Shown piece by piece: positions 2,311-58,671 of a stretch of DNA of 64,000 bases; within the stretch, counting starts at the first letter, position 1, and each line of letters opens with the position of its first letter. Below the pieces are notes generated by a model that was not told the origin of the DNA, searched no databases, and was given only the letters and a program-made list of their open reading frames with translations. A program made the position numbers and the translations under genes. Where the stretch lies: contig JANWZI010000010.1 in the NCBI GenBank assembly GCA_025054695.1, positions 592-64,591 on the forward strand, given 5' to 3'. This DNA is from Myxococcota bacterium (GTDB taxonomy: Bacteria > Myxococcota_A > Polyangia > Polyangiales > JANWZI01).

Positions 2311-2438
2311 GTCACAGCGGTTGACGTAACCAAGGGGCGTTGCGAGACCGAGACCGAGCTCGACTCCGAGACGGAGACCGAGACCGCGTTCGAGTACGAG
2401 CTGCAACCGCCGTCGATCAACCTGGCCCCCGCTGTGAC
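2311..2438. repeat. Hexamer-repeat element, copy 1: (GAGNCC)x10 core at 2344-2403 bracketed by an imperfect inverted repeat
   Basis: Units read gagacc gagacc gagctc gactcc gagacg gagacc gagacc... GTCACAGCGG (2311-2320) is the exact reverse complement of CCGCTGTGAC (2429-2438). The element is intergenic, between convergent genes. A degenerate tract in the opposite orientation continues at about 2490-2642. Confidence 0.85.
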
Positions 2439-3956: not shown

Positions 3957-6239
<2,283 letters not shown>

Positions 6240-9614: not shown

Positions 9615-9725
9615 GCGTGTCTCGGGTGCGCGCTGCCGTCCGAGTGTCCGATTCGATCTCGGGTTCGGTTGCGGGGACCCGTCTCGGTCTCGCGATCGCG
9701 TTGTCGGATCGGCCCGAACCGTCAA
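9615..9725. repeat. Degenerate short copy of the hexamer-repeat element
   Basis: Sequence reads gtgtctcggg...gtccgagtgtccgattcgatctcgggttcgg...cgtctcggtctcgcg. It ends in GTCAA (reverse complement TTGAC) overlapping the stop codon of the 9722 gene. It is intergenic. Confidence 0.4.
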
Positions 9726-10390: not shown

Positions 10391-10534
10391 GGCCTCGGGC
10401 TCGGCATCGGAATCGACCTCGGCCTCGGACTGGGTCTCGGTCTCGGAATCGAACTCGGACTCTGATTCGGACTCGGCCTCGGACTCGGGCTCCGTCTCGG
10501 CGTTGGCCTCGGTCTTGTTTTCGGGCTCTCGGCC
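10391..10534. repeat. Hexamer-repeat array (complement orientation, CTCGGN units)
   Basis: Sequence reads ggcctc gggctc ggcatc ggaatc gacctc ggcctc ggactg ggtctc ggtctc ggaatc... It is intergenic, with a flank CTTGGTT (reverse complement AACCAAG) at 10542-10548. Confidence 0.85.
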
Positions 10535-10591
10535 TTGCGCTCTTGGTTCCTCAGACTTCGCCCTGCGAATTGCGCTCTGCGACGGCCTCGG

Positions 10592-19221: not shown

Positions 19222-19317
19222 ATCGGGCGCGGGGAGCTGCGCCGCGGTCAACCGCACGGCGAGAGAAGAGGGCGAGGACGCACGGCGCACCTCGGCTTGC
19301 TGCACGGTGGGGGAGGG

Positions 19318-19570
19318 GTTGGGCTCGGAGTCAGGCTCGGGCTCGGACTCGGACTCTGGCTCGGACTCTGGCTCGAACTCGGTCTCGGACTCGGTCCCGG
19401 ACTCGGACTCGGACTCGGTCTCGGACTCGGGCTCGGACTCGGGCTCGGAGTCGGGCACCGACTCGGCCTCGGTCTCGGCCTCGGCCTCGGACACAGACAC
19501 GGAGTCAGGCTCGGGCTCGGACTCTGGCGCGGACTCGGTCTCGGTCCGGGAGTCGGCCTGGGGCTCGGCC
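19318..19570. repeat. Hexamer-repeat array (complement orientation), about 40 units; the largest in the window
   Basis: Sequence reads gggctc ggagtc aggctc gggctc ggactc ggactc tggctc ggactc... It is intergenic between two plus-strand genes. The right flank contains GCGACCGTGTCCCGG. Confidence 0.9.
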
Positions 19571-19673
19571 ACGCCGCGCCGTCGTCTGGAATCGCGCGAC
19601 CGTGTCCCGGACCGATGCGCGTGCACCGGCTGCCCGTCGACGGGGCGCGCCGTGGCGCCTATGCTGCGCGGCG

Positions 19674-22230: not shown

Positions 22231-22366
22231 CCGACACCGAGACCGAGCCCGAGTCCGAGCCTGAGTCCGAGTCCGAGTCCGAGTCCGAGCTGGAGCGCGA
22301 GCCCGAGCCTGAGGCCGAGTCCGAGACCGAGAGCGAGACAGAGACAGAGACGGTGACGGAGTCCGG
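22231..22366. repeat. Hexamer-repeat array (GAGNCC orientation)
   Basis: Sequence reads gacacc gagacc gagccc gagtcc gagcct gagtcc gagtcc gagtcc... It is intergenic and ends 5 nt before the stop of the 22371 gene. Confidence 0.85.
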
Positions 22367-29065: not shown

Positions 29066-29174
29066 GCGGCCGCAGCCTACACCGGAACGGGCGCCCGTGC
29101 CCTCGCGGGCGTCGTCGGCAAACGTTGACGAGCCCATGGGACGCGTCGGCGCCCATGCAAGGCCAACTCCCCTT

Positions 29175-29267
29175 CGAGCCCGAGCTCGAGTCCGAGCCTG
29201 AGTCCGCGCCGGAGTCGGAGTCCGAGCTCGAGTCCAAGTCGGAGCCGGATTCGGAGCGGAGTCCGAG
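29175..29267. repeat. Hexamer-repeat array (GAGNCC orientation)
   Basis: Sequence reads gagccc gagctc gagtcc gagcct gagtcc gcgccg gagtcg gagtcc gagctc gagtcc aagtcg... An upstream box TTGACGAGCCCATGGGACGCGTCGGCG lies at about 29124-29150. Confidence 0.8.
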
Positions 29268-29315
29268 TGCGTCACTCGGGGCGCGTGGTCTTGGAGGGCA
29301 CGCGTACGCGTGCCG

Positions 29316-30693: not shown

Positions 30694-32247
30694 ATGCATT
30701 CGGATGCGGTACGTCTGGGGGGCCCCCTCCGCCTTGAGGACGTCGAGGACGTGGCCGTCGGCAGGCGACGGGCCGAGTTGCCGGAGCCGTCGCGCGTGGT
30801 GATGGAGCGGAGCCGTCACGCCATCGAGTCGCTGTGCGAGGCGGCAGACCAGGCTCCCGCCATCTACGGCGTCAACACCGGCTTCGGCGCGCTCGCCGAG
30901 ACGCGGATCGCCGCCGCGGACGTCGAGCGACTGCAGCTCAACCTGCTGCGGAGCCACGCCGTCGGGGTCGGCCCTCCGCTTTCGCGCGAGCAGGTGCGTG
31001 CGATGATGCTTCTGCGCGCGCAGGCCCTCGCGCTCGGCCGCTCGGGGGTGCGGCCGGCGCTCGTCGAGACGCTGCTCGCGATGCTCGATCGCGACGTCGT
31101 GCCGGTCGTTCCGGCTCAGGGCAGCGTCGGCGCATCGGGCGACCTGGCGCCGCTCGCCCACCTCGCTCTGGTGCTCGTGGGAGAAGGGGAGGCCCTGTTC
31201 GAGGGTCGGCGACTCGACGGCGCCGAGGCGTTGCGACGAGCCGGGCTCGAGCCGTTGCGTCTGGGGCCCAAGGAAGGGCTCTCGCTCGTCAACGGCACGC
31301 AGATGATGCTGGCCGTCGGCGCCCTTGCGCTGCTCGAAGCGGAGCGGCTGTGCGCGCTGGCGGACGTGACCGGCGCGATGTCCTTGGATGCGCTCGAGGG
31401 CAGCGGCCGGCCCTTCGATCCGCGCATCGCGGAGTGTCGCCCGCACCCCGGGCATCGGGCGAGCGCGGACAACCTGCGCGTCCTGCTCGACGACAGCGCC
31501 ATCATGGAGAGCCACCGCGACTGCAAAAAGGTCCAGGACCCCTATTCGCTGCGCTGCATGCCCCAGGTGCACGGGGCCAGCCGCGACGCCTTGGCCTGGG
31601 CCCGCGGCGTGCTCGAGCGCGAGACGGTCGCGGCGACCGACAACCCCCTCGTCTTCGTCGACGACGGCGGCCGCGTGGACGTGCTCAGCGGTGGCAACTT
31701 CCACGGACAGCCCCTCGCCCTCGCGCTCGACCTGGCCGCGATGGCCGTCGCGGAGCTGGGCGCCATCGCCGAGCGGCGCATCGAGCAGCTCGTCAATCCG
31801 GCGCTCTCGAGCGGTTTGCCGCCGTTCCTCGCGCCCCGCACCGGGCTCGACTCGGGCTTCATGATGGCGCAGGTGACCGCCGCGGCGCTGGTCAGCGAGA
31901 ACAAGGTGCTGTGCCATCCCGCCTCGGTCGACTCGATTCCGTCGAGCGCCGGCAAGGAGGATCACGTCTCGATGGGCAGCATCGCCGCGCGCAAGCTCGC
32001 GCGTGTGGTCGAGCACGTGCGCGTCGTGCTCGCCATCGAGGCCCTGGTCGCCGCGCAAGGGCTCGACCATCGATTGCCCCGCCGCGGAGGGCGGGGCGTG
32101 CGGGCCGCGCACGATGCGATCCGGTCGGTCTGTCCGCCGCTACAAGAGGATCGCGCGCTGCACCGGGACGTCGAGGCCGCCGTCCGCCTGTTCGAGTCGG
32201 GCGCGCTGCGCTCCGCGGTCGAGGCTGCCACCGGCCCACTTCGTTGA
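30694..32247 (+). CDS. hutH: Histidine ammonia-lyase family (MIO-dependent aromatic amino acid ammonia-lyase)
   Basis: Lies in ORF 30226..32247, starting at ATG 30694 ([10 protein letters not shown]). Contains [15 protein letters not shown] and the MIO triad [14 protein letters not shown]. Confidence 0.85.
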
Positions 32248-32257: not shown

Positions 32258-32326
32258 TCGGGAGTCGGTCTCGGACCCGGCCTCGGACTTGGGCTCAGGT
32301 TCGGACACAGAACCGGGCTCGGGATC
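32258..32326. repeat. Hexamer-repeat array (complement orientation)
   Basis: Sequence reads tcggga gtcggt ctcgga cccggc ctcgga cttggg ctcagg ttcgga... It begins 11 nt after the hutH stop. The right flank contains GCGACCCATGTGATCCGCG. Confidence 0.75.
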
Positions 32327-32431
32327 GAAACAATCGCCGGCGGCTGCGACCCATGTGATCCGCGCGGTCGGGACCGCGTTCCGACGTGGGCTCGGGTCGG
32401 CACGCGGCCTCGCGTCGCGGCGCGGTCGCGA

Positions 32432-33037
32432 TCAATCGTCGGGCCCGTTCGCTTCGAACGCCGAGCTGATCTCTTCCCACGACGGCACGAGGCTGCTCGG
32501 CGCGACGGTCGCGACGTGTAGTCGCAGCACGACGCGCGCGACCGGGGACGTCTGCGAGAAATTGCCGCGGCGGCCCCGGGGATTCTCGAAGACCGCCTCG
32601 GAGCCGGGACGGGGAAATGGATACGAGATCTCGATGCGGTCGCCGCTTCGGTGCTGGCCGCCCACCAGGCGCAGCCCAAGCATCGGATGGCGACGCACAA
32701 CCCGGCGCGTGGTCCGGTCGAGCACCTCGACGCACGTCATCTGCGGGTCGAGCACGTAGACGTGATTCTGCGTCCAGATCTCGAAGACCTTCCACGGCGT
32801 CTCGAGGCTCGGCGACGGCCCGTGCGAATGGACGACCTCGACCTCGAGCATGGGCTTGCCCCGCGCGCGACGCGGGGAAAGCGACGGCGACGGGGGACGA
32901 AGAGCCATGTCGGTGGTCGTGATCGAGGCGTCGATGGGAACCGAGACGCGCTGCTCGACCGGGCGCGGGTCGGCAATGCCGACCAGGGTCGTCGGGGTGC
33001 GCCGCTGACTCACGCGCTGACCGTACAACGATTCCAC
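32432..33037 (-). CDS. Hypothetical protein
   Basis: 201-aa ORF with a GTG start and non-repetitive composition (WKVFEIWTQNHVYVLDPQMTCVEVLD). I recognise no family. Confidence 0.5.
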   Translation of the reverse strand: MESLYGQRVSQRRTPTTLVGIADPRPVEQRVSVPIDASITTTDMALRPPSPSLSPRRARGKPMLEVEVVHSHGPSPSLETPWKVFEIWTQNHVYVLDPQMTCVEVLDRTTRRVVRRHPMLGLRLVGGQHRSGDRIEISYPFPRPGSEAVFENPRGRRGNFSQTSPVARVVLRLHVATVAPSSLVPSWEEISSAFEANGPDD

Positions 33038-33084
33038 TGCGGGTGTCTCGCCGCAACCGTGATCCGGTGCGATTCGCTCCAGGG

Positions 33085-33286
33085 CCCGAGACCGAGCCCG
33101 ACTCCGAGACCGAGACCGAGTTCGAGTCCGGGTCCGAGCCCGAGCCCGAGCCCGAGTCCGGGTCCGAGCCCGAGACCGAGACCGAGACCGAGTCCGAGTC
33201 GGAGTCCGGGACCGAGTCCGAGACCGAGTCCGGGTCCGAGACCGAGTCCGAGCCCGAGCCGGAGTCCGAGACCGAGACCGAGCTCG
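33085..33286. repeat. Hexamer-repeat array (GAGNCC orientation), about 33 units
   Basis: Sequence reads cccgag accgag cccgac tccgag accgag accgag ttcgag tccggg tccgag... It is intergenic. The left flank is GCAACCGTGATCCGGTGCGATTCGCTCCAGGGC. Confidence 0.9.
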
Positions 33287-33313: not shown

Positions 33314-34075
33314 CTACGTCGCCGACCAGCCCCCGTCGACGACGAGGACGGATCCCGTGACGTACGAAGCCTCGTCGGAAGCGAGGAAGACCGCCGCGGG
33401 CGCGACCTCCTCGGGCTTGCCGACGCGGCCGAGCGCCGTGCGCGAGACGACACGCTCGACAATCGCGGGGTTGTTCGTGAGCGCCGCGGAGAACCGCGTG
33501 TCGATGAGACCTGGGGCGATGGCATTGACGCGGATTCCGAGCGGGCCCAGCTCGACGGCCAGCGTGCGCGTCATCGAGACGATGGCGGCCTTGGTCATGC
33601 CGTAGATGCCCTGCATGGGCGCGGCCATCGCGCCGAGCACGCTGGTGACGTTGACGATGGCTCCGCCGCCGCCCCGTCGCTGCACGTGCGCGGCCAGCGC
33701 GCGGCAAAGCGCGAAGGGACCTTCGAGGTTGACCTCGAAGGTCTTGCGCCAGACGGCCTCGTCCGCGCCGCACAGCGCTCCGAAATACGGATTGGTCGCC
33801 GCGTTGTTGACGACGACGTCGAGCCGGCCGAAGCGCTCGATTGCCGTTTCGACGAGTCGGGTGGCCTCTTCGGGTCGGCCCGCATGCGCGGCCACGGCCA
33901 TGGCCTCTCCGCCTTCCGCTCGAATGGCGCCGGCGGCCTGCTCGAGGGCCTCGAGCTTGCGCGCGGACATCAGCACGCGCGCTCCTTCGCGCGCGAACGC
34001 TCGGGCGATCGCGAGCCCGATGCCCCGGCTCGCGCCCGTCACGACGGCGACCTTGTCGGTGAGTCGGCGAGTCAT
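33314..34075 (-). CDS. Short-chain dehydrogenase/reductase (SDR) family oxidoreductase
   Basis: 253 aa containing VTGASRGIGLAIA, NNAA and YGMTKAA. Confidence 0.88.
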   Translation of the reverse strand: MTRRLTDKVAVVTGASRGIGLAIARAFAREGARVLMSARKLEALEQAAGAIRAEGGEAMAVAAHAGRPEEATRLVETAIERFGRLDVVVNNAATNPYFGALCGADEAVWRKTFEVNLEGPFALCRALAAHVQRRGGGGAIVNVTSVLGAMAAPMQGIYGMTKAAIVSMTRTLAVELGPLGIRVNAIAPGLIDTRFSAALTNNPAIVERVVSRTALGRVGKPEEVAPAAVFLASDEASYVTGSVLVVDGGWSAT

Positions 34076-34151
34076 CCGACGCGCACGCTAGCACGCGCGT
34101 CGCGACCCCGAACGGGTCGGATGGCGCCGGCCGAGTTGGTTGATCGCGCCT

Positions 34152-34184
34152 TCGACTCGGTCTCGGACTCGAGCTCGAGCTCGC
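34152..34184. repeat. Short hexamer-repeat tract in a divergent gap
   Basis: Sequence reads tcgact cggtct cggact cgagct cgagct cgc. Confidence 0.5.
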
Positions 34185-34300
34185 AGTACCCGTCGGCCAC
34201 GTCAAGCCACGTGACCGCCGCTGCGAGGGGTCATTGCACCTGAGCGAGAGGCGAGCTCGGGTGCGAGCGTTGACGATCCCTGGGACGTCGCACGACGATC

Positions 34301-35540: not shown

Positions 35541-38426
35541 TCAGCCCGGTCCGATCTCGGCGAGCGTGCGTTCGACCTGCTCGAGCTCCGGCAACCCGAG
35601 CGGGCGCAACAGCGCGCGCGCCTCGCGCAGCCGCTCGCGTGCCGTTTCCAGGTCTCCGCGCTCGACCAGATGGCGACCGAGCGCGATCAGCGACCGGGCG
35701 ACCTCCTTGTCGTTGCCGAGCTCGCGGAAGATGTCGATGGAGGCTAGGTAGCTGTCCTCGGCGCGGCGGTCGACGTCGCCGCTCGCATCGAACAGCGTCC
35801 GCGCGCGCAGGTCTCCGAGCGCACGATGGGCGAGCGCGATGGCCTCGCGCCCTCCGTACTGGGTCGCCAAGGCGAGCGCGTTGCGAAGCGTCGCTTCGCT
35901 GGCCTCGTCGCCCAGGCGCATCAGCACCAGGCCGAGGTTGCGCTCAACCTCGGTCGCGGCGCGCAGATCGCCCAGGCTCTCGGCGAGCCGCCGGGCCTCG
36001 AGCAGGCGTGCGCGTGCCTCCTCGAGGCGGCCGTCGCGCGCGAGCGCCTCGCCCACGTTGTTGTGCAGGAAGCACTGCGTACGTCCATCGCCCACCGATC
36101 GCGCTCCTTGCAGCGCCTGCTCCCAGCGCTCGATGGCCGCGGCGATGTCGCCGCGCTCGAAGGCGAAGATGCCGAGCGCGTTGAGGGACTCGACCGTTCC
36201 CTCGAGATCGCCGAGCTCGTGTCGAATGGCGAGCGCCTCGCCGCACAGTCGCTCGGCCTCGGGCAGCGCACCGCGCGCATAGCGCACCATCCCCAGCGTG
36301 TGCAGCGAGACGGCCTCGCCGCGGCGGTCGGCCTGTGCCCGGCGCAGGGCGAGGGCCTCGTTCGCCGCGTGCTCGGCCGCCTCCAGCTCGCCGCGCACAC
36401 GCAGTACCTGGGCCAGGTCGTCGAGCGTGGCCGCCACCCCCCGTGCGTCGGCGGCTCCGCGGAACAGCTCGAGGGCGCGCTCGAGCAGGACGCGTGCCCG
36501 CTCGTCCTGACCGCGCCGGCGGTGCACCCGCGCGATGCGGTTGAGCGCGGCCGCCGCCTTGCCGCGGGCGCCGAGCCGCCATGCCAGGCGCAACATGCGG
36601 TCGAACGAAGCGAGCGCCTCGTCGTAGCGACCCAGGGTGGTCAGCAACGAACCGTGCTCGTGCAGGGCGTCGAGACGGCGCGCGACGTCGTCCTCGGCGA
36701 GCAGACCGAGCGCTGCCGTCACGTACGCAAGCGCGGTCTCGGTTCGCAAGCGGGCGCGTTCCTCGTGCGCTGCCTCGAGGTAGGCGCGACCGGCGCGCTC
36801 GCGCAGCCCGGCGCGCTCCAGGTGCGGAGCGATGAGCGCCGCGACGCCCTGCCAGCCCGTCTCTGCCGCGACCGCGAGCCATCCGGCAACGGCGGCGTGG
36901 CGGGCGACGCGCAGCGCGGGGTCCATGCGGTCGTAGAGCAGATCGCGCACGCGGCTCGAGGCGAATGCGTACTGGCGCATCGCGGGAAGCTCGCAGGGCT
37001 CGTAGACGAGCACGAAACCCCGACGCACGAGCCGCCCGAGGACCGCGTCCAGCATGGCCACGTCGTCGTCCGTCCAGATCGCAGTCGGATCGGTCTCCGT
37101 GTCGGGTGGTGCACGCTCGGTGCGCATCTGGGCGAGCAGCGCGCCGTCCCAGAAGGTCTCGCCGACGACCGCGGCGCGTTCGAGCGTGGCGCGATCGAAC
37201 GGGTCGAGTCGCTCGAGCCGACTGAGCACCGCGTCGTCGGCCGTCACGGGCAAATCCCCGCGGTCCAGGCGCCCCAGGTCGACGCGAAGGCTCGCGTCGT
37301 CGCCCGCGACGAACAAGCCGGCTTCGACGAGCTCCTCGACGAGTTGCACGACGGCGGCCGGTCGACCCCCCGACCGGTGCGCGATCGCGGCGCCGAGGGC
37401 TTCGGGCACCGCGTCGAGGGCCGGAAGCAGGACGCGCACCATCGCGGCGACCTCGGCCTCGTCGAGCGGCGGCAGCGGAACGACGGACTGCATGCGATGG
37501 GGGGGGATCGGGCCCAGCCGCTCCGCGACGGAAGGTTCGCCGGTCACGACGATGGCCACGTGCGCCTCGATGCCGAGCAGCTCGCGCAGCATCTCGAGGG
37601 CGACCTCGCTCGCGCGGTGCAGATCGTCGAGCAGCACGAGCAGGGGACGGGCGCGCGCGTCGGCCTCGAACAGCTCCCGCAGCGCGCGGCGGGTGCGGCG
37701 GCGCAGTTCCTCGGGGCGTCCCGCGAGCGAGGTCAGAAACGGGCTGTCCGGGAACGGAACGCCCGCGAGATGCCCGAGCAGGTGCGTGGCTTCGGCCACC
37801 GCGGCTGCCTCCGAGGTGCCCAGTGCTTCGGCCACGGCCGTGGCCATCTGCGCGCGCACCGAGGCCGGGCTGCGCGTGGGGACGATGTCGAAGCGATCGA
37901 GCAGAAGTCGGGAGAACGGCGCGTGCTCGTCGTCGCCCTCGCGACACGCGCCGTACAGCACCCGCGTGGAGGGATCGAGCGCGGCCGCGACCTCGCTGGC
38001 ATGCACGAGCAGTCGCGTCCGCCCCGAGCCGCGTTCTCCGATGACGAGCACGACGGCGGGGCGACCGACCGAGAATGCCGCCTCGATGGCCGACGAGATG
38101 GCGGATGCGGCCTCGACGCGCCCGACCAGGGGCGGCTCGGCTCGATCCGCGGCGCCGAAGGAGCTTGGCGCGGCGTCCGAAGACGCCGGCTCCGCCTCGA
38201 TCGAGGGCGGCGGGGCATGCTCGTCGGTCATCTCCGGAGCGCCGGTGACCTCCGTGCGCTCCTCGGGCTCCGACGTCGGGGGCGAACCGGACGGGAGCCC
38301 GAGCGACCACGATCGGCTCCACGGCGTGGCGCTGCCGAGCGGCCGGCCACATCGGGCGCAGCCCCGCCACGCGCGCGGGTTGACGAACCCGCAGGCGCGA
38401 CATCGACCGTCCGCAGACCCCGTCAC
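35541..38426 (-). CDS. STAND-like ATPase (AAA_16-type P-loop) with an N-terminal zinc ribbon and a C-terminal TPR array
   Basis: 961 aa. The N-terminus has CRACGFVNPRAWRGCARCG, the Walker A is VIGERGSGRTRLL, and the C-terminal half has more than 8 TPR-like repeats (LGDLRAATEVERNLGLV...). Confidence 0.75.
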   Translation of the reverse strand: MTGSADGRCRACGFVNPRAWRGCARCGRPLGSATPWSRSWSLGLPSGSPPTSEPEERTEVTGAPEMTDEHAPPPSIEAEPASSDAAPSSFGAADRAEPPLVGRVEAASAISSAIEAAFSVGRPAVVLVIGERGSGRTRLLVHASEVAAALDPSTRVLYGACREGDDEHAPFSRLLLDRFDIVPTRSPASVRAQMATAVAEALGTSEAAAVAEATHLLGHLAGVPFPDSPFLTSLAGRPEELRRRTRRALRELFEADARARPLLVLLDDLHRASEVALEMLRELLGIEAHVAIVVTGEPSVAERLGPIPPHRMQSVVPLPPLDEAEVAAMVRVLLPALDAVPEALGAAIAHRSGGRPAAVVQLVEELVEAGLFVAGDDASLRVDLGRLDRGDLPVTADDAVLSRLERLDPFDRATLERAAVVGETFWDGALLAQMRTERAPPDTETDPTAIWTDDDVAMLDAVLGRLVRRGFVLVYEPCELPAMRQYAFASSRVRDLLYDRMDPALRVARHAAVAGWLAVAAETGWQGVAALIAPHLERAGLRERAGRAYLEAAHEERARLRTETALAYVTAALGLLAEDDVARRLDALHEHGSLLTTLGRYDEALASFDRMLRLAWRLGARGKAAAALNRIARVHRRRGQDERARVLLERALELFRGAADARGVAATLDDLAQVLRVRGELEAAEHAANEALALRRAQADRRGEAVSLHTLGMVRYARGALPEAERLCGEALAIRHELGDLEGTVESLNALGIFAFERGDIAAAIERWEQALQGARSVGDGRTQCFLHNNVGEALARDGRLEEARARLLEARRLAESLGDLRAATEVERNLGLVLMRLGDEASEATLRNALALATQYGGREAIALAHRALGDLRARTLFDASGDVDRRAEDSYLASIDIFRELGNDKEVARSLIALGRHLVERGDLETARERLREARALLRPLGLPELEQVERTLAEIGPG

Positions 38427-42285: not shown

Positions 42286-43053
42286 GTGGGCCACGTCGTC
42301 GCCGTCGCCAATCAAAAGGGCGGGGTCGGCAAGACCACGACGGCGGTGAACCTGTCGGCGAGCCTCGCGGTGACCGACCAGCGGGTCCTGCTGGTGGACG
42401 TCGATCCGCAGGGCAACGCGACCAGCGGCCTCGGGCGCTCGCCCCGGCGGCTGCAACGCGGGACGTACGAGGTGCTCGTCGAGGGTCTTCCGATCGCCGA
42501 GGCGGAGCTCGCGACCGAGCTGCCCGCGCTGCGGCTCGTGGGCGCGAGCCACGACCTGGCGGGAGTCGAGCTCGAGCTGTCTTCGGCGCCGGATCGAGCG
42601 GAGCGGTTGCGTGCGGCGCTGCGTCCGCGTCGGGACGCGTACGATTTCGTCGTCATCGACTGTCCCCCGTCCCTCGGTCTGCTCACGCTCAACGCGCTGG
42701 TCGCCGCCGATCTCGTGCTCGTGCCGATGCAGTGCGAGTACTACGCGCTCGAGGGGCTCTCGCAGCTCGTCGAGACGGTCGAACGGGTGCGCGCGACGCT
42801 CAACCCCGCGCTTCGGATCCACGGGGTGCTGCTGACGATGTACGACGCGCGCAACAACCTCGCGTTGGAGGTCGCCGCCGAGGTGCGCCGCCACTTCCCG
42901 GTCTACGAGACGACCATTCCGCGCAACGTGCGCCTCGCCGAGGCGCCCTCGCACGGCAAGCCGGTGCTGCTGTACGACGCCTCGTCGCGCGGCAGTTACG
43001 GATACCTGAGCCTGGCGCGCGAGCTGCTCGGCGCGCTTCCGGGAGGGCCGTGA
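42286..43053 (+). CDS. parA: Chromosome partitioning ATPase ParA (Soj)
   Basis: GTG start after AAGGAGAG. Contains VANQKGGVGKTTTAVNL and DCPPSLG. Confidence 0.92.
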   Translation: MGHVVAVANQKGGVGKTTTAVNLSASLAVTDQRVLLVDVDPQGNATSGLGRSPRRLQRGTYEVLVEGLPIAEAELATELPALRLVGASHDLAGVELELSSAPDRAERLRAALRPRRDAYDFVVIDCPPSLGLLTLNALVAADLVLVPMQCEYYALEGLSQLVETVERVRATLNPALRIHGVLLTMYDARNNLALEVAAEVRRHFPVYETTIPRNVRLAEAPSHGKPVLLYDASSRGSYGYLSLARELLGALPGGP

Positions 43054-43919
43054 GCAGTCCGGAGTCGCGTCGTCCGCGCCTCGGGCGGGGTCTCGATGCG
43101 ATTCTGCCGGTTCCGGCCGGCTCCTCGGGCCATGGCGGAAGCGGCGGCGCGCTCGAGTTGCCCATCGAGGAGCTGCATCCGAATCGGGCCCAGCCGCGTC
43201 GTCGTTTCGACGAGGCCGCACTCGACGAACTGGCTCAGTCGATCCGGTCGGTGGGCGTGCTCGCGCCCATCGTCGTGCGGCGACGCCCCGCTGGAGGCTA
43301 CGAGATCGTCGCGGGCGAGCGCCGCTGGCGTGCGGCGCAACGCGCGGGGCTGCGCGCGGTGCCCGTTGTGATCCGCGAGCTGACGCCGGCCGAAGCGCTC
43401 GAGGCCGCGCTCGTCGAGAACGTCCAGCGCGAGGACCTCGAGCCGCTTGAGCTCGCGCGGGCCTACCAGCAGATGATCGAGTCGCACGGCTACACGCAGG
43501 AGCGCCTGGCGGCGCGTGTCGGTCGCGACCGCTCGACGATTGCCAACGCCCTTCGACTGCTTCGCCTTCCGCCGGAGGTGCTGGCGCTGCTCGAGGAGCG
43601 GCGCATCGACGAGGGCCACGCCCGCGCGCTGCTGCAGGCCGCAAGCCCCGCCGAGATGATTCGTCTGGCACGCATGGCGGCCGAGCGCGGGCTGTCGGTG
43701 CGTCAGGTCGAGGCGCTCGCCCGCGCCTCGCGTCAATCCGAACGCCCCGCCTCGCGCGCGGAGCGCACCCCGAGCGCGAACGTGCGCGACCTGGAGAACC
43801 GACTGCGGCGCTCGCTGGGGGTGCAGGTGCGCGTGGTCGACCGCAAAGGCCGCGGTCGCATCGAGCTCAACTACGGCAGTCTCGACGAACTGGACCGGTT
43901 GCTTGCGCGCCTGCTTTGA
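43050..43919 (+). CDS. parB: Chromosome partitioning protein ParB (Spo0J)
   Basis: This is the C-terminal part of ORF 42267..43919, starting at GTG 43050, which overlaps the parA stop as GTGA. Contains LGRGLDAIL, GERRWRAA and an HTH (QERLAARVGRDRSTIANALRLL). Confidence 0.9.
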   Translation: MSSPESRRPRLGRGLDAILPVPAGSSGHGGSGGALELPIEELHPNRAQPRRRFDEAALDELAQSIRSVGVLAPIVVRRRPAGGYEIVAGERRWRAAQRAGLRAVPVVIRELTPAEALEAALVENVQREDLEPLELARAYQQMIESHGYTQERLAARVGRDRSTIANALRLLRLPPEVLALLEERRIDEGHARALLQAASPAEMIRLARMAAERGLSVRQVEALARASRQSERPASRAERTPSANVRDLENRLRRSLGVQVRVVDRKGRGRIELNYGSLDELDRLLARLL

Positions 43920-44957: not shown

Positions 44958-45108
44958 GACGTCCTCGGGGCTGCGAGAGGGGGGTCGAGTCGCTAGCACG
45001 TCGGCCTCGATGTCGCAACGAGTCTCGATCGCGTGGAGCGAGGACACGCTCGCGCGCGGCGGTGCCGTTCGAAGCCGGTGACCAAGGGCTCAGGAAGCGT
45101 GCGGGTCG

Positions 45109-45264
45109 GAGCCAGAGCCCGAGTCCGAGCCCGAGCTCGAGCCCGAGCCCGAGTCCGAGTCCGAGCTCGAGCCCGAGTCCGAGCTCGAGTCCGAGCTCGA
45201 GCCCGAGCCCGAGTCCAAGTCCGAGACCGAGACCGAGTCCGAGTCCGAGTCTGAGTCCGAGTCC
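45109..45264. repeat. Hexamer-repeat array (GAGNCC orientation), 26 units, in the rplS/uppP divergent gap
   Basis: Sequence reads gagcca gagccc gagtcc gagccc gagctc gagccc gagccc gagtcc gagtcc gagctc... The left flank is GTGACCAAGGG (45078-45088), and the right flank contains GTGATCGATGC. Confidence 0.92.
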
Positions 45265-47433: not shown

Positions 47434-49023
47434 ATGCGTCGCTTCGCTTGGTGTGCGGCCGCCGCGGCACCGTTCGTCTCGACTTCGTGCGTCGACCCGA
47501 ATCCCGTGGGACGCCTCGAGGCACCCGCGGTCTATGGAGAGGACGACAGGCGGGACGTGTTCGAGCACGACGACGCGTCGCTGCGTGCGCGTACGGACGG
47601 CTCCATCGTCGCGCTGATGCAAGCCGAGGCGTTGATGCCGGACGGCGACGGAAGCTACGTGCCCCTGGCTCCCACGCTCGGCGAGGCGCAGCGACTGTGT
47701 GCGGGACAGCGATTCGCCGAGCAGCCGACCGCCGCATTCTGCTCGGGCACGCTGATCGACGACGATCTGGTGCTGACCGCCGGTCACTGCGTCGAGGCGT
47801 CGGGCGACTGTTCGGACGTCCGGCTCGTGTTCGACTATTACTTCGTCGCCCCGGGGCGGCTCGCGCGCATCGAGCGTGAAGACGTATTTGCCTGCCGCCG
47901 CATCGTGACGCGGCGACTCGAGGAGAGCGGACTCGACTACGCCGTCATGCAGCTCGACCGGCCGGCGACGCCGAGCGGACGCAGCGTCGCTCCGGTACGC
48001 CTCGAGGACCGGCCGCTTGAACGGGACCGGCGCGTCGTGGTCATCGGGTTCGGAAGCGGGCTGCCGGCGAAGATCGACGACGGCGGTCGCGTCGTCGACC
48101 CGCGCGCGAGCCGTCTCGACTACTTCCATGCGACGACCGACACGTTCGGCGGCAACAGCGGCTCGGGCGTATTCGACGAGGAGGGAAGGATCGTCGGCAT
48201 CCTGGTGCGGGGGGAAACCGACTACGTACCCGCGGGCTCGTGCTACGTGGTCAACGAGCTGCCCGACTCGGGCACGGGGGGCGCAGAGGACGTCGTATAC
48301 GTGCGGCGCGCCATCGACGCGCTGTGCCGCGAGGGCTGGCCGAGCGAACGGCTCTGCGGGCGCGGGTCCTCGTGCGGTGACGGAATCTGCAGCGGCATGG
48401 AAACCCCGGAGGACTGTCCAGACGACTGCGCGGCCGCGGCCTGTCCGGATGGCCTGTGTCAGCTCACCGAGGACGAGTCGAGCTGTCCCGCCGATTGCGC
48501 GGGCGGCGCGAGCTCGGGGCCGCCGTCCGGCTGGACCTGCCCGGCCGGGTGGTATGACGCGCGGGAGGGCTGCGACTGCGGTTGCGGGGTGCGCGATCCG
48601 GATTGCGACGTGCCGGGACAGCGCGTGTACGGTTGCACCGAGGGGCAGAGCTGTGACGCGTCGGGGCGCTGCACCGACGCGCCGGCAGGCGGCGGCGTCT
48701 GGCTCTGTTCCCCCGAGTACTACGGAACGTCGGACGGATGCGACTGCGAGTGCGGCACACGCGATCCCGACTGCGACGATCCCTCGCAACCGGTGCTCAA
48801 CTGTCCCGATGGCTATCTGTGCGGCGGGCCGTCCGGCACGTGCGTCGACGAGTCCGGAATGCCGCCCGGCGCGAGTGGCGGCGACGCGACGTGCGCCGTG
48901 ATGGGTACGGCGGGCCCGGCGATGACCGTCGTGCTCGCGGCCTGGATCGCGATGGCGCGGCGTCGTCGAGCCCGGCGCCGCGGCACGCCGCGGACCGCGC
49001 ATGGCAGGCCCGGAGCGAACTGA
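47434..49023 (+). CDS. Secreted trypsin-like serine protease with duplicated Cys-rich modules and a MYXO-CTERM-like tail
   Basis: Lies in ORF 47311..49023, starting at ATG 47434. Contains LTAGHC and FGGNSGSGVF. Two modules read W.C...Y....GCDC.CG.RDPDCD. The tail is CAVMGTAGPAMTVVLAAWIAMARRRRARRR. Confidence 0.75.
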   Translation: MRRFAWCAAAAAPFVSTSCVDPNPVGRLEAPAVYGEDDRRDVFEHDDASLRARTDGSIVALMQAEALMPDGDGSYVPLAPTLGEAQRLCAGQRFAEQPTAAFCSGTLIDDDLVLTAGHCVEASGDCSDVRLVFDYYFVAPGRLARIEREDVFACRRIVTRRLEESGLDYAVMQLDRPATPSGRSVAPVRLEDRPLERDRRVVVIGFGSGLPAKIDDGGRVVDPRASRLDYFHATTDTFGGNSGSGVFDEEGRIVGILVRGETDYVPAGSCYVVNELPDSGTGGAEDVVYVRRAIDALCREGWPSERLCGRGSSCGDGICSGMETPEDCPDDCAAAACPDGLCQLTEDESSCPADCAGGASSGPPSGWTCPAGWYDAREGCDCGCGVRDPDCDVPGQRVYGCTEGQSCDASGRCTDAPAGGGVWLCSPEYYGTSDGCDCECGTRDPDCDDPSQPVLNCPDGYLCGGPSGTCVDESGMPPGASGGDATCAVMGTAGPAMTVVLAAWIAMARRRRARRRGTPRTAHGRPGAN

Positions 49024-49033
49024 CGGCCCTCGC

Positions 49034-49158
49034 GTTGCTTGACGTGGCCGACGGGTGTCGCGAGCCCGAGTCCGAGGCAGAGTTCGCGCCCAAGTCCGAG
49101 CCCGAGCCCGCGTCCGAGTGGGCGCCCCGGTCAACCACCTTCCCACGCGCCGTGACAC
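49034..49158. repeat. Hexamer-repeat element: flank box, (GAGNCC)x10 core at 49062-49121, and an inverted right arm
   Basis: The left flank is GTTGCTTGACGTGGCCGACGGGTGTCGCGAG. On the right are GTCAACC (49130-49136) and CGTGAC (49151-49156). The element starts 11 nt after the protease stop. Confidence 0.8.
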
Positions 49159-49285
49159 GCGCCGGTGCCGCCGCAAGCGCCCCGAGCGCCGACGACGGGG
49201 TCTCGGGCAGGCGTTCGGGCTCGTGACGTCCCGGTCGCCGGGTCGGAGCGAAGCGGGGTCGACCCAGGCGTCCGATGCCGGGAAG

Positions 49286-52183
49286 ATGCGCGTGTGCGTT
49301 GACGTGATCATGCTCCGGTTCGTGAGCTCGTCACGCGGCCGGACCGCTCGACGTGTCGTGTGCCTGTCTGCGGCGATGCTGCTGGGCGGAGTACCGGACT
49401 CAATCGCGCAGGCACCGGACGGAGAGCCGGAGGCGATCTTGCGGGCCTTGCGTGCGGATCGGCCCGCGGGCGTACCGGAGGGTGCGCTCGTGTCGATCGA
49501 GTACACGCTCGAGGTCGCCGCGCGGATCGAGCGCGCGTTCCCGACACAGGCGGCGGCGTGGCGTGCGCGCGCCGTGCGGTATCTGAGACGGGCGCGCGCC
49601 GGCGTCGATCCGTACCCCGAAGAACGCGGGCGGATCGTGCCGCGCGGTTACCGCTCGCCGCTGTCGACCGTATTGCAGGGCTACGCGGTGTATCTCCCGC
49701 CCGACTACGACGCGACGCGCCCCTGGCCGCTGATGGTGGTCCTCCACGGCGGCTCGTCGAATGGAAACCTCTTCCTCGGCGTCGTCCTCGGCAACAACCT
49801 CGACTGGGAGGCCTATCCGCGGCACTTGTGGGACGAGTTCGAGCCGCGATGGAGGCCCGCGTGGATCGTCGTCGCGCCGACGGGATTCGGGCAGGTCATG
49901 TGGCGATGGATGGGCGAGCGCGACGTGCTCGACGTGATCGACGACGTGCGACGTCACTACCACGTCGATCCGGACCGCATCGTGCTTGGGGGCCTGAGCA
50001 ACGGGGGCGTCGGTGCCTACGCCATCGGCTCGCGGCACGCCTGGCGGTTTTCGGCCGTGATGGCGATGGCGGGCGCGCCGAGCTGGCTGCAGTACGTCGG
50101 CGGCCGTCCCACGGAGGCCGAGCGTGCGGCCATCGTTGCTTGGTCGGGCCTGCATCTGCTCGCCAACACGAGCGGCACGGATTTCCGGGCGTGGCACGGG
50201 CGCGTCGATCCCGGGCCCATGCGGCCGGCGTTCTTCGCGGAATACGAGGCGGCGGTGCGGGCGGCCGGGTTGCCTGCGCGCCTGCGTTGGCTCGATGCGG
50301 GCCACGACATCCTCTATCTCGTGCATCGTCACGGTCGCATCTACGACGAACTGGCCGCGATTCGTCGCCAGCCGAGCCCCGCGCGGGTCAGTCTCGTCAG
50401 TGGCGACTACCGCGCGGCGCGACAGCACTGGCTCGAGGTGCGGCGCATCGAGCCGTTCCCCGGCCTCGCCGAAGTGCAAGCCGAGGTGAACGCGGAGCGA
50501 ATCGACGTGCGGGCTCGGGGCGCGACGGCGCTGTGTGTGGACCTTCGCACGGCGCCCGTCGTCGGCGAATCGGTCGTCGTGCAGGTCGATCAACAACGCG
50601 TGCTCGAAGAACGACGCGATCGACTCGGTCATCAGATCTGCTTGGTTCGACGCGAAGGGCGTTGGACCGCGGGCTTCCCGGAGGAAACGGCCGAGGCGCC
50701 GGTCAAGCGTTCCGGTTCGTCCGGGCCCATCACGGACGCGTACTACGAGCCGATGGTTCACGTATACGGCACGCTGCGGGCCGAGCGCATCGATGCGTTG
50801 CGGCGCGCGGCCGAGCGCGGTGCACGTGGCTGGCCGTTGTGGTTGTGGGACTTCCGCCAGCCGGTGCTCGCCGACCACGAAGTGGACGCCGCGACGATGC
50901 GTCGCGCCAACCTCGTCCTGTACGGAACACCGCAGGACCATGCCCTGATCGCGCGGATCGCCGAGCGACTGCCGATTCGCGTCGAGGGCGATGCCCTCGT
51001 CGCGGGCGGCCGGCGCTGGACGGGTCGAGACGTGGGCGCGCGGTTCATCTACCCCAATCCCTTGCAGCCGGATCGCTACGTGATCGTGCAGACCGGCGTC
51101 AGTCCCCAGGCCGTCGATGCCGGCAATCGACTCCCGGACTTCTTGCCGGACTGGATCGTGTACGACGCGCGGACCACCGCGGCGCGCGAGCGGCTCATCA
51201 CGGGACGCCGTCCCGCCCTGGCGATGGGCTGGTTCGACGAGCGCTGGCGGCTGGTCGAATCGCCGGCCCGGGGCGTCGGAGACCCGCAGTCGGCCGATCC
51301 GACCTCGTCGGACGCGCGGCGAGCCGGCGGAGACGCAGCCCCCGCCGAGTCGCTCGTTTCACCGTCGCGTGGGGAGGCCGTCGAGGCGGTCACCCGCTGC
51401 GAGGACGGCGGTGGGTGCGGGTCGAGCCCTTCGGTTCCGTCAGGCGCCATGCCGCTATCGGTCGCTGCGGCGCCGCCCTTGCCGCCGGCGCCGGCCACGG
51501 TGCTGCCTCCGCGCGGAGATCCCGCGCACGCGATCGCGCGAGAGATCGCGCGGCGCGTGGTCCGGTTTCCGAACCTTCGGGCCGAGGCATACGGCGGGCG
51601 CTGGGTCGTCGAGCCCGAGCGCGTGTGGCGCGTGCGCGGAACGCGAGCCTGCTTCGCGGCGCTGCGCGCGGCGGGGATCCGCGCGACGCCGTGGACCGAC
51701 CCGTTGTCCACACCGGTTCCCGCGCCCGTCCGAATGCCCTCAAAGGTGGGTGCCGTTCGTTTCCACGGTCGGGCCGCGGCTGATCCGCTCGTGGTGGCGT
51801 GCGAGCTCGCGGCGCGGCTGCCGGCTCTGTCCGCGGTGCTGCAGCGCCACGGCATCGAGGCGGTCGCGATCAGCTCGGCGTGGAGGCCGACGCCGTGGAC
51901 CAGCTTCCACACGTTCGGGCTCGCGCTGGACGTGCCGCGGATGTGGTCCCGGACCCTCGGGCTGCTCGAGCTCGAACGGGACTTCGTGACGACGCCCTCG
52001 ACGCCGACGTGCGAAGGACCGGCTCCAACGGAGCCTCGGGCCGCGCTGCTGCGCGAGATCGCCTGCGATCTGTGGCAGGAGCGCGTCTTCAACACCGTGA
52101 TCACGCCCAACTACAACGAGGGCCACCGCGATCACTTCCACTTCGACATCCGGCCCGACGATCCGCGCTTCTTCGTGCGCTGA
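49286..52183 (+). CDS. Secreted two-domain protein: N-terminal alpha/beta-hydrolase (esterase/peptidase-like) and C-terminal extensin-like domain
   Basis: Lies in ORF 49055..52183, starting at ATG 49286 or 49310. Contains [11 protein letters not shown] and GGLSNGG. The C-terminus has [10 protein letters not shown]...[18 protein letters not shown]. Confidence 0.65.
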
Positions 52184-52228: not shown

Positions 52229-52321
52229 TCGGACTTGCACTCGCGATCGGCCTCGGTCTCGGGTCTCGGCCTCGGTCTCGGGCACGGTCTCGGGACCAGG
52301 CCCGGAGTCCGGCTCGGCTCC
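52229..52321. repeat. Hexamer-repeat array (complement orientation)
   Basis: Sequence reads tcggac ttgcac tcgcga tcggcc tcggtc tcgggt ctcggc ctcggt ctcggg cacggt ctcggg... It is intergenic. Confidence 0.75.
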
Positions 52322-53624: not shown

Positions 53625-55724
53625 GTGAGCGGCCGTGGCGCGTGCGTACTGGGCCTGATGGCCTGCTGGAACGTGGCGGGCTGCTACCGGTCCCACCTCG
53701 AGCCCCGTCCGTCGGGCGACGCGGGCGACGAGGGGACGACCGAGGCCGACGCGGGTTTGGACGCGGCGCCGCTGGATGCCGTCTTCGACGCGAGCCCCGA
53801 CGCAGCGGCCGAGGCGGCGCTCGATGGCTCGCTCGACGCCGGCCCCGACGCCCCGGACGCGGATGCGGGGATCGACGCGCCGCCGGACGTGGGGCCGCCA
53901 CCCGTACCCGGGCGTTGCAGGACCGAGCCCGTGGCCCATCCGTTCGAGGACCCCGTTCAGGAGGCACGCTGGCCGGACGGCCCGGTGGAGCACCCGCAGG
54001 CGGTGCACGTCTGCTCGACTCCGGTCGTCATCGATCTCGAGCCGCCCGCGTCCGGCCCCCTCATGCCCGAGATCGTGTTCGTCTCGTACCCGCCGCTGAC
54101 GGCGGACGAGCCGCCCGGCGTGCTGCGCATCTGGGATCCGCGTAATCGGACGACGCGGAGCTATCCGCCGTCGGTGGAGGAGCCCGGCGTGCTCGAGCCG
54201 ACGACGAACCTAGCGGCTGGCGATCTCGATGGCGACGGGCGCAACGAGATCGTGGGCATCGGACGCTTTTCGGGAACGTACGCGTTCCGTAGCGATGCGT
54301 CGCTGATGTGGGAGTCGGCGCATCCGACGGTCTCCGAACGCGGACACCGCTGGGCGCGTTCGGTCTCGGGCGCGGTCACGCTGGCCGATCTCGAGGGGGA
54401 CGGACACGTCGACGTCGTCGTCGGACGCACGGTGCTCGATGGCCGGACGGGCGCGCATCGCTGGACGGGGCCCGAGGGCACGGGGCGCGCGGTCAACCAG
54501 TTCCTCGGGCCGATCTCGTGCGTGGCCGACCTCGACGACGACGGCGTCCAGGAGGTCATCGCCGGGCACACGGCGTTCCGCGCCGACGGCACCGTGATGT
54601 GGAACGTGCCCGAGGAGGGCGACGGGTTCTGCGCGGTGGCGGACGTCTTCCTCGACGAGCCGGGCCCGGAAGTCGTGCTCGTCGCCAATGGCTTCATCCG
54701 GATTCTCGAGGAACGGAGCGGCCGGCGGTTGTGGCTGCGCGCCATCGAGGGTCGCGTGCGCGACTCGCTCGGCGGAGCGCCGACGGTGGGCGACTTCGAC
54801 GGCGACGGACGCGTCGAGATCGGCGTGGCGCACGGGGCCGCGTATGGAGTGTACGACCCCGAGTGCACGGCACGCGGGCGTCCGCGCGGCTGCACCGGCG
54901 ACGGACTGCTCTGGAAGGCCGAGATCGGAGACGATTCGTCGTCCGGCACCGGAAGCAGCGTCTTCGACTTCAACGGCGACGGTCGCGCCGAGGTCATCTA
55001 CAACGACCAGTATCACTTCCGCGTGTACGACGGCACCACGGGTCGCGTGCTCTTCCAGCACCGCAGTTCGTCGCGCACGCGTACCGAGAATCCCGCGATC
55101 GCCGACGCGGACGGCGACGGCGAGGCGGAGATCGTCTTCACGTCGAACGCCGAGGCCAACTTCATCCGCATGTTCTGGACGGACCCCGGCGTGGAGATCT
55201 GGGGCGACCGGCGCGGGCGCTGGGTCGGCGCGCGGCGTATCTGGAACCAGCACGCGTACCACGTCACCAACGTCGAGGAGAACGGGTCGATTCCGGCGCG
55301 TGAGACGCCCGGATGGACCGTGCTCAACGCGTATCGGCAGAATCTCCGTGAAGGCGGAGATGTCCTCGCCGCACCGGATCTTTGGGGCGGTCGGGGCCGC
55401 TGGACGTGCACGGGCCCAGGGCGCGCGCGCCTGACGGTCGACGTGCAGAACTGGGGCCTGGAGCGCGTCGGACCGGGGGTCTCCGTGCGCCTCTATCGCG
55501 ACGCACGCCCCGAAGACGGGGGGCGGTTCGTGGCGGCCGCGTCGACGACGAGCATCCTCGAGCCGTCGGGCGGGCGGGAGCGCGTCGTCTTCGACGTCGC
55601 GGTCGACTCGGTGACCGACTTCTACGCGATCCTCGACGATCCGGCCGATCCGGAGAGCGGCGATCGCGTCGCCGAGTGCCTCGAGGACAACAACTGGGTT
55701 CTCTTCTGGCGTGTGGCGTGCTGA
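53625..55724 (+). CDS. FG-GAP/VCBS-repeat beta-propeller lipoprotein
   Basis: 699 aa with a GTG start and lipobox WNVAGC. Repeats are GDLDGDGRNEIV, ADLEGDGHVDVV, ADLDDDGVQEVI, GDFDGDGRVEI, FDFNGDGRAEVI and ADADGDGEAEIV. Confidence 0.8.
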   Translation: MSGRGACVLGLMACWNVAGCYRSHLEPRPSGDAGDEGTTEADAGLDAAPLDAVFDASPDAAAEAALDGSLDAGPDAPDADAGIDAPPDVGPPPVPGRCRTEPVAHPFEDPVQEARWPDGPVEHPQAVHVCSTPVVIDLEPPASGPLMPEIVFVSYPPLTADEPPGVLRIWDPRNRTTRSYPPSVEEPGVLEPTTNLAAGDLDGDGRNEIVGIGRFSGTYAFRSDASLMWESAHPTVSERGHRWARSVSGAVTLADLEGDGHVDVVVGRTVLDGRTGAHRWTGPEGTGRAVNQFLGPISCVADLDDDGVQEVIAGHTAFRADGTVMWNVPEEGDGFCAVADVFLDEPGPEVVLVANGFIRILEERSGRRLWLRAIEGRVRDSLGGAPTVGDFDGDGRVEIGVAHGAAYGVYDPECTARGRPRGCTGDGLLWKAEIGDDSSSGTGSSVFDFNGDGRAEVIYNDQYHFRVYDGTTGRVLFQHRSSSRTRTENPAIADADGDGEAEIVFTSNAEANFIRMFWTDPGVEIWGDRRGRWVGARRIWNQHAYHVTNVEENGSIPARETPGWTVLNAYRQNLREGGDVLAAPDLWGGRGRWTCTGPGRARLTVDVQNWGLERVGPGVSVRLYRDARPEDGGRFVAAASTTSILEPSGGRERVVFDVAVDSVTDFYAILDDPADPESGDRVAECLEDNNWVLFWRVAC

Positions 55725-58193: not shown

Positions 58194-58333
58194 GGACGTG
58201 GCTGCTTACCTCGAAGTCCACGTCACGGTCCACGGTTCGGTGGGGGTTGCAGGCGCGGCGGGGCACGCGCTCGTGCATGAAGCGATGATGCGTCTCGCAC
58301 GGGGCGAACGCGGTCTCAGCGTTGCCCTGGGTT

Positions 58334-58552
58334 TCGGAGTGTGTCTCGGGCTCGGACTCGGACTCGGGCTCGGACTCGGTCTCGGACATGGACACGGACA
58401 CGGACTCAGACACGGTCTCGGACTCGGAATCGGACTCGGTCTCGGTCTCGGGCTCGGGCTCGGGCTCGGACTCGGTCTCGCGCTCCGACTCCGGCTCCGA
58501 CTCGGGCTCGGGCTCGGTCTCCGACTCGGACTCGGTCTCGGGCTCGGACTCG
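58334..58552. repeat. Hexamer-repeat array (complement orientation), about 36 units; the full element is about 58320-58626
   Basis: Sequence reads ctcggg ctcgga ctcgga ctcggg ctcgga ctcggt ctcgga... The right flank is CTCGCAACTCTCCTCGGCTACGGCAAGCAAC (58549-58579). CCCTGGGTTTCGG (58325-58337) is repeated as CCCTGGccagGTTTCGG (58610-58626). Confidence 0.92.
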
Positions 58553-58671
58553 CAACTCTCCTCGGCTACGGCAAGCAACGTGACAGCCGCGATCAGAGTC
58601 GGGTCCGAACCCTGGCCAGGTTTCGGGCTCACGGATCCGAGCGCCAGAACGGCAGGACGGCCTCGACGCGC

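Follow-up and report, generated by a model that had tools for sequence, protein, structure and literature searches.

A conserved leader box and a shared tail flank intergenic GAGNCC arrays in a Myxococcota bacterium: a candidate composite repeat family

The 64,000-nucleotide (nt) stretch of DNA analysed here (hereafter, the window) belongs to an uncultured Myxococcota bacterium (NCBI GenBank assembly GCA_025054695.1, contig JANWZI010000010.1, positions 592–64,591 of the forward strand), has a G+C content of 71%, and carries twelve arrays of the hexamer GAGNCC, which lie on both strands. Our subject is a conserved box, described in an earlier note made from the sequence alone, that stands directly in front of some of these arrays. 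Gene calls were taken from the near-identical contig JAVQYH010000004.1 (GCA_033577305.1) and cover the whole window and ~17 kb beyond it; the same flanking DNA was joined to the window for sequence searches (~81 kb in total). All arrays are intergenic and occupy tandem, convergent, and divergent gaps in both orientations, filling 12 of 45 gaps overall and 12 of the 25 gaps that are at least 100 nt long. They comprise 2.2% of the window (about one array per 5 kb), and a search for three consecutive GAGNCC units with up to two mismatches returned 181 matches, compared to 1.7 expected.

The 45 nt in front of every array, taken in the GAGNCC orientation, contained four strong copies of the box (hereafter, the leader), each recovered by profile search, leave-one-out search, and alignment: copy A (2304–2343, plus strand; AACCAAGGGG variant), copy B (49022–49061, plus strand), copy C (58552–58591, minus strand), and copy D (34183–34222, minus strand). 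All four end exactly where the first GAGNCC unit begins and share the same register; the earlier note had stated for two of the boxes that they abut the first unit. A recount also reproduced its comparison of 49034–49064, which is included in copy B, with the reverse complement of 58549–58579 (25 of 31 positions identical), and its third version at 2319–2346 was confirmed. Copy D, which had been overlooked, reads gtcacgtggcttgacgtggccgacgggtactgc followed by GAG and has a 20-nt exact core, GCTTGACGTGGCCGACGGGT, in common with copy B. The motif TTGAC lies 23 nt ahead of the first unit in the four strong copies, in the form TTGCC in copy C. In an ungapped 46-column alignment, the similarity spans ~40 nt, with a consensus of about GCGGC.GTCACGTTGCTTGACGTRGCCGASGGG...TGC. 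The arrays behind these leaders differ in length and gene context: array A (2344–2397, plus strand) has nine units and lies in a convergent intergenic region, array B (49062–49127, plus strand) has ~11 units and lies between two co-oriented genes, array C (58330–58551, minus strand) has ~37 units, and array D (34153–34182, minus strand) has five units and lies in the divergent region between an SDR gene and an esterase gene.

The box is genuine, far beyond chance, and tied to the arrays. Using dinucleotide shuffles as a control, the 19-mer consensus (up to three mismatches) was found three times against 0.05 expected. When each copy was left out of a position weight matrix (PWM) in turn, it ranked fourth among ~161,000 positions, right after the three training copies, and the corresponding nhmmer searches gave E-values of ~1e-4 for copies B, C, and D and 0.17 for copy A. 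The profile background reached at most ~10 bits, compared to 27–40 bits for box copies, and therefore neither the profile nor the nhmmer scan of the ~81 kb found a box apart from an array. The probability that the likeness arose by chance from GC-rich composition is practically nil. Some minor motifs do lie at the chance level, including the second recurrent flank motif proposed in the earlier note (CGTGATCC-like; 33 matches vs. 32.4 expected), but the count for the 19-mer consensus, the leave-one-out ranks and E-values, the common register at array boundaries, and an independent tail module (see below) all oppose chance for the main box, for which the shuffled-sequence controls and leave-one-out tests refuted an origin from composition only.

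Less well-preserved leaders were found at other arrays. In-register scoring of the remaining flanks gave two more candidates: a degenerate leader F (CGGATCACATGGGTCGCAGCCGCCGGCGATTGTTTC; 32327–32362, minus strand; PWM p = 9e-5), in register with array F (32261–32326, minus strand), and copy E, which lies beyond the window (about −6461 to −6130 in window numbering; 19229–19560 of the extracted locus) and has a leader flank that scores p = 2.3e-4 in register. By-eye alignment added a decayed leader G (45057–45108, plus strand; GCGGCGGT...GTGACCAAGGG, with ~8 nt inserted, then GCGTGC) in front of array G (45109–45264, plus strand), between the divergent genes rplS and uppP. This copy is credible because the 11-mer GTRACCAAGGG has just two exact matches, at 2326 and 45078, each on the 5′ side of an array that points the same way. 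Thus, among the weaker versions suggested previously, the one at 45078 is supported, whereas the flanks at 10542–10548 and 29124–29150 could not be told apart from chance (best p 0.04–0.06 over 25 offsets). A probable array-poor copy H (9648–9745, minus strand; leader part 9692–9745) has two insertions in its leader (TTGACG-gttcg-GGCCGA-...-TCGC) and only two units (GAGACC GAGACG, 9691–9680), followed by a tail-like GCAACCG..GATCGAATC; its MAFFT alignment with A, B, and D was poor, and it was assigned by eye. PWM scoring of the flanks detected no box at about half of the arrays. No significant box precedes the arrays at 10391–10528 (minus strand) and 29176–29268 (plus strand), the array at 19321–19572 (minus strand) has no box in register (weak resemblance with indels), and no box was found at 22233–22364 (plus strand; ending 6 nt from the stop codon of an 862-amino-acid [aa] gene), 33082–33285 (plus strand), or the short array at 52231–52291 (minus strand). 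A near copy (TTGACGTGATC) of the box core TTGACGTGGCC is present at 49299–49309, just before an ATG at 49310 near the start of a 965-aa esterase-like gene and ~170 nt downstream of the copy B array, and may be due to chance (8 such matches vs. 2.8 expected with up to one mismatch).

Behind the arrays, copies A, B, D, and E have a second module in common, the tail, with a consensus of ~35–40 nt that reads about GC-GATCAACC-AAC.CGG.C.GCGCCGTSA. It lies at 2407–2444 in copy A (plus strand; ending in CCGCTGTGAC), at 49122–49161 in copy B (plus strand; CCCCGGTCAACCACCTTCCCACGCGCCGTGAC), where it is the weakest of the four, and at 34111–34152 in copy D (minus strand; GCGCGATCAACCAACTCGGCCGGCGCCATCCGAC); no tail was recognised in copy C. 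In leave-one-out searches, the omitted tail was the top non-training match for A, D, and E, with a weak result for B and none for C. Given a leader box on one side of the arrays and this second module on the other, the unit is a leader, (GAGNCC)n, and a tail.

The hexamer core itself is variable. Arrays contain from 2 to ~40 imperfect units, the three commonest of which account for 128 of 237, and the free fourth position is T (0.42), C (0.30), A (0.22), or G (0.07). Tandem Repeats Finder reported a 30-nt period (i.e., five hexamers) at 2344–2400, 29175–29267, 33086–33282, and 45109–45255, and periods of 12 or 18 nt in other arrays. These higher-order periods suggest growth by duplication of multi-unit blocks in addition to single-unit slippage. 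Runs of GAGCCC (e.g., 33136–33153 and 58450–58467) are GGGCTC repeats on the opposite strand, with G3 tracts and 3-nt loops, and judging from their sequence could form G-quadruplexes; long runs of this kind are rare, and most arrays mix units.

With respect to neighbouring genes, arrays in tandem gaps are usually closer to the upstream stop codon than to the downstream start codon, as would be expected if promoters are spared. In these gaps, the boxed copies B and C point in the direction of the genes, and five of the six arrays without a box run antisense, numbers that are too small for a conclusion; in convergent and divergent gaps, array orientation relative to the genes carries no information. 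The genes parA and parB are located at 42286–43919 and the cumulative GC skew climbs steadily through the window, which may lie near the replication origin, on one replichore. The boxed elements show no strand bias (four on the plus strand, three on the minus strand). A putative 193-aa gene without a Pfam match (32432–33013, minus strand) is located between the arrays at 32261–32326 (minus strand) and 33082–33285 (plus strand), whose 5′ ends face each other across it.

Several elements begin or end at a stop codon. In five cases, the TGA of the terminal TGACG or TTGA is the annotated stop of a gene that reads into the element. The outermost TGACG of the copy B leader includes the stop codon of a trypsin-like peptidase gene (49021–49023), the TGA at 9724–9722 in copy H, part of a TTGACG within box-like sequence, is the stop codon of a 174-aa gene, and an aromatic amino acid lyase gene ends within the TTGAG on the tail side of array F (stop codon at 32245–32247). 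The remaining two cases are the ends of copy E, where the leader TGA terminates an aldehyde dehydrogenase gene and the TGA in the inverted end of the tail terminates the opposing 835-aa gene. Copy E exactly fills this convergent gap, and the aldehyde dehydrogenase protein extends 72 aa past its Pfam domain. The overlaps that the earlier note had placed at 9721–9725 and 32244–32247 are therefore real, at 9722–9724 and 32245–32247, but an enrichment of stop-codon overlap is only suggestive, striking as these cases are: TGA is followed by CG or TCG in 10 of 18 genes with a downstream array vs. 14 of 47 genes without one. The reason for this caution is that TGA-CG and TGA-TCG are a general stop context in this genome (among the 65 genes of the window and its flanks, 55 end in TGA, and CG or TCG comes directly after the stop codon in 24). 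The resulting TGACG or TGATCG is the short motif that also recurs in the leader box, which may have originated from this common gene-end context or have come under selection to resemble it.

The distribution of the elements was examined in other sequences. An SDR protein encoded in the window is 99% identical to one from a Myxococcales metagenome-assembled genome. The window and JAVQYH010000004.1 (136,581 bp) differ by 64 substitutions and one indel (99.9% identity); none of the substitutions falls in a box, and one falls in an array (position 22314). Between 23,314 and 54,554, the substitutions form tight intragenic clusters, many of them spaced by multiples of 3 (e.g., 33332–33587, 36705–36768, 35853–35871, and 54212–54230; another cluster is at 4350–4413), and look like strain-level recombination tracts or a mixed-strain consensus. 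One identical Ffh protein came from a second assembly, and the next-best Ffh proteins are only 72–75% identical. Comparable arrays were absent from ~0.95 Mb of unrelated high-GC loci, where a match in Enhygromyxa is a coding (ES)n linker, and from two non-syntenic loci that encode the nearest SDR homologues (66% and 64% identical). A strict box pattern had three matches in JGI metagenomes, all of them chance matches at the start of a transhydrogenase-like gene, and none in viral contigs, in which the array pattern matched only coding (EP)n and (ES)n linkers. The pattern GMCGTNNCCN10GCGAGNNCGAGNNCGAG had at least 120 chance matches in a genome collection, from many phyla and in GAG-rich coding DNA, with no true box among the matches listed. 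No close paralogues were found on the 81 kb, and literature searches with the hexamer strings and for myxobacterial hexanucleotide repeats returned nothing relevant. A Kofleriaceae metagenome-assembled genome (JACKDR010000006.1) contains (GTGCCC)8 at 7288–7336 of the extracted locus, ~15 nt after a TAG triplet, and intergenic hexamer arrays with other units may be more widespread in Myxococcota.

The organisation of these elements recalls known composite repeats. BrickBuilt elements of Porphyromonas gingivalis consist of a leader, spacer-less 23-nt tandem repeats, and a tail, are always intergenic, and are restricted to the species; among 19 copies, 11 have both flanks, three the leader only, two the tail only, and three neither, and there are no solo flanks (Klein et al. 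2015, PMC4596501). The GAGNCC family resembles BrickBuilt in having a leader, a variable and imperfect array, and a tail, in its intergenic location, in its mixture of complete and partial copies (four with leader and tail, several with the leader only, and about half with neither), in the absence of a solo box, and in having been found so far in a single species. It differs in its unit (6 nt with one free position vs. 23 nt), in the length of its leader and tail (~40 nt vs. up to ~300 nt), and in its density (12 arrays in 64 kb vs. 19 copies per 2.3 Mb), and the small terminal inverted repeats of BrickBuilt have no demonstrable counterpart in the GAGNCC elements. The pneumococcal BOX elements (boxA-(boxB)n-boxC) are also intergenic, are confined to one species and its closest relative, and have been interpreted as largely parasitic (Croucher et al. 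2011, PMC3049150). They share with the GAGNCC family the fixed end modules and variable tandem middle, and they can overlap or modify gene ends, but boxB far exceeds 6 nt in length and boxA and boxC form an extensive stem-loop, whereas no leader-tail pairing is predicted for the GAGNCC elements; the terminal inverted repeats of BOX resemble those of ISSpn2. Because the unit lengths differ (6 nt vs. 23 nt and longer), homology of the GAGNCC modules to BOX or BrickBuilt is unlikely, and we liken them by architecture only.

The GGGNATC heptamers of Xanthomonas and Nostoc, as summarised in the abstract of their description (Rehm et al. 2015, PMC4692102), belong to repeats with units of 6–9 nt, one degenerate position, and arrays of 2–26 units; like the GAGNCC arrays, they are dispersed and enriched outside coding sequence, frequently within 50 bp of a stop codon. 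According to the same abstract, which mentions neither leader nor tail, they have G-tracts, form G-quadruplexes, and prefer four units, whereas GAGNCC has no G-tract and GGG arises only opposite GAGCCC. REP and REPIN sequences carry a GTAG or CGTC tag and are palindromes of 20–40 bp (Di Nocera et al. 2013, PMC3733652). They are likewise short, extragenic, lineage-specific, mostly downstream of genes, located between tandem or convergent open reading frames, and often in inverted pairs, but the box is not a conserved palindrome, has no consistent tag (alignment A3), and is bound to a tandem hexamer array. On balance, these comparisons suggest that the box is the leader of a new family of the composite-repeat kind, with a 6-nt core, short flanks, a very high density, and unproven terminal repeats as its distinctive features.

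We therefore lean, with modest confidence, towards reading the box as the conserved 5′ leader of a new, lineage-restricted, non-coding composite interspersed repeat family. Copies range from well preserved to barely recognisable. This graded preservation, together with the absence of a solo box and the presence of a second module on the other side of the arrays, would be expected from copying followed by decay and not from independent origins; the pattern thus supports the copying of whole leader-array-tail units over the separate birth of each array. Whole units might have been copied into intergenic DNA via transposition-like movement, ectopic recombination, or gene conversion, after which the hexamer core could have been lengthened or shortened through slippage or unequal exchange, while leaders and tails decayed until older copies came to look like bare arrays. 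The unit copying, its mode, and a mainly selfish or neutral nature of the family are what we infer from these patterns. The earlier note had attributed the shared flanks to a common origin by mobility or recombinational spread; the common origin is supported by the modules on both sides and the lack of a solo box, and the mobility would be a deduction rather than a result.

Several observations weigh against this composite-repeat interpretation. The family is known from few copies (four strong leaders and three or four weak ones, together with four tails), all on one contig of one species, for which no empty site is available for comparison, given that the nearest Ffh relatives are 72–75% identical. 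No transposase was called on the ~81 kb, and inspecting the outer borders of copies A, B, D, and E by eye revealed no target-site duplication. A terminal inverted repeat is attractive by eye, with ends that seem inverted (left end GTCAC..TTGAC, right end GTCAA..GTGAC), and only copy A has a perfect 10-nt inverted repeat between its leader (GTCACAGCGG) and its tail end (CCGCTGTGAC; rough p ~0.01), while by eye 8 of 10–11 positions match in copies B and D; however, the leader profile has no match to the opposite strand of the tails, and a 10-mer matrix finds no inverted match in them. The core shared by copies B and D is identical and its edges are diverged (nine differences in 40 nt, none of them in the 19 central columns; rough p ~0.02), which hints at selection or gene conversion acting on the core instead of uniform decay. 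Finally, array lengths are equal in the window and the near-identical NCBI record, with no ongoing instability seen.

Another possibility is that the box is a functional DNA site, bound by a protein that acts on or spreads along the hexamer array, in which case the element would be a gene-boundary module kept by selection (acting, e.g., as an insulator, as a terminator or roadblock, or in nucleoid organisation). We regard this as rather unlikely, though deserving of consideration. The leader contains two or three T[CG]ACGT.GC motifs spaced by 10 nt, including direct repeats one helical turn apart in copy D (TCACGTGGCT / TGACGTGGCC), boxes were seen only next to arrays, about half of the larger intergenic gaps contain an array, and the conserved 20 nt of copies B and D fit a binding site, as do the element ends that coincide with stop codons (those of the peptidase, lyase, and 174-aa genes and of both convergent genes at copy E). 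Yet half of the arrays lack a box, copy A has only a poor version of the 10-mer repeat (3 of 10 positions), and the stop coincidence is largely explained by the general TGA-CG/TGA-TCG context; in addition, there is no conservation beyond this species to compare with, and no candidate binding protein was identified. A more specific version, a lineage-specific gene-boundary device in which a protein reads the leader's T[CG]ACGT.GC repeats as well as a related motif on the opposite strand of the tail and organises the (GAGNCC)n array, so that transcription units of either direction would be terminated or insulated by the module, would account for the filling of about half of the larger gaps, the starts exactly at stop codons, and the 20-nt core identity, but is distinctly improbable.

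A role in RNA, as the 5′ part of a small RNA or as a stabiliser or processing site in a 3′ untranslated region that is transcribed together with the upstream gene and acts via a hairpin, appears very unlikely. Copies A, B, C, E, F, and H do lie 0–80 nt downstream of a co-oriented stop codon, a 6-bp hairpin (columns 2–7 with 19–24 of alignment A3) is 78% paired compared to 22–61% in slid controls, with one pair varying among AU, GC, and GU, and copy D has a 9-bp local hairpin. However, covariation in neither of two candidate box hairpins (78% and 62% paired) exceeded that of shuffled controls (86/500 for the former), whole-element folds are no more stable than shuffles (z = +0.6, −1.0, and +1.1), and Rfam 15 had no match in the whole window, which also lacks tRNA and tmRNA. 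The gene context is no more favourable: orientation is uninformative in convergent gaps, only copies B and C among the boxed elements lie in informative tandem gaps, copy D is in a divergent promoter region, and the unboxed arrays are mostly antisense to their neighbours (five of six in tandem gaps). A terminator-like hairpin follows element A (2480–2504; CGGTGTCGAATACCG TCTTGCTCTT) and counts in favour of such a role; it would put element A in the 3′ untranslated region of a PAS-domain gene. It is the only terminator-like hairpin with a T run found near any element, and no intrinsic terminator was found at any box in a scan of four regions. The suggestion of the earlier note that TTGAC may be a promoter −35 element, driving the array or the downstream gene, did not hold up and is now highly unlikely. 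TTGACG is a good −35 match in copies A, B, and D, of which D precedes the SDR gene and B the 965-aa gene, but 16–18 nt downstream lies the invariant GC|GAGNCC rather than a −10 element, all four scanned regions lack a sigma-70-like site, copy C has TTGCC, and copies A, E, and F face convergent genes with nothing downstream to transcribe. Sigma-54 and extracytoplasmic function (ECF) promoters were rejected on reading the sequence, based on spacing (2 nt too long for sigma-54) and the lack of a conserved GG/GC (GG is absent in A and C). It is exceedingly improbable that the box begins the coding sequence of small acidic (Glu-Ser/Pro/Thr)n proteins or is a relic of lipoprotein signal peptides. 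The GAG frame reads ..VT.LDVADG.C followed by E-x repeats, with a cysteine just before the repeat in copies A, C, and D, and an Enhygromyxa lipoprotein and some viral proteins have (ES)n and (EP)n linkers encoded by GAGTCC or GAGCCC. Against this, upstream stop codons close the frame 27 codons before copy A, which has no in-frame start, and 17 codons before copy D, neither B nor D has a hydrophobic signal region, the tail frame in A differs from that in B and D, arrays beyond the window contain 1-nt and 4-nt indels, the order T > C > A > G at unit position 4 does not resemble the codon bias of a genome with 71% GC, and no array was called as a gene in the source record.

If the box is indeed the leader of a composite repeat, this uncultured Myxococcota lineage would harbour a very dense and previously undescribed family, in which leader and tail turn puzzling GAGNCC microsatellites into copies of one element. 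The two profile models would provide a handle for annotating the elements genome-wide and help to keep false gene calls and misassemblies from arising there. There is also a small but real chance that the elements mark gene boundaries, which would make them a new kind of bacterial genome punctuation. As copies of a composite repeat, the GAGNCC elements would offer a starting point for studying how tandem repeats with short units spread through bacterial genomes.

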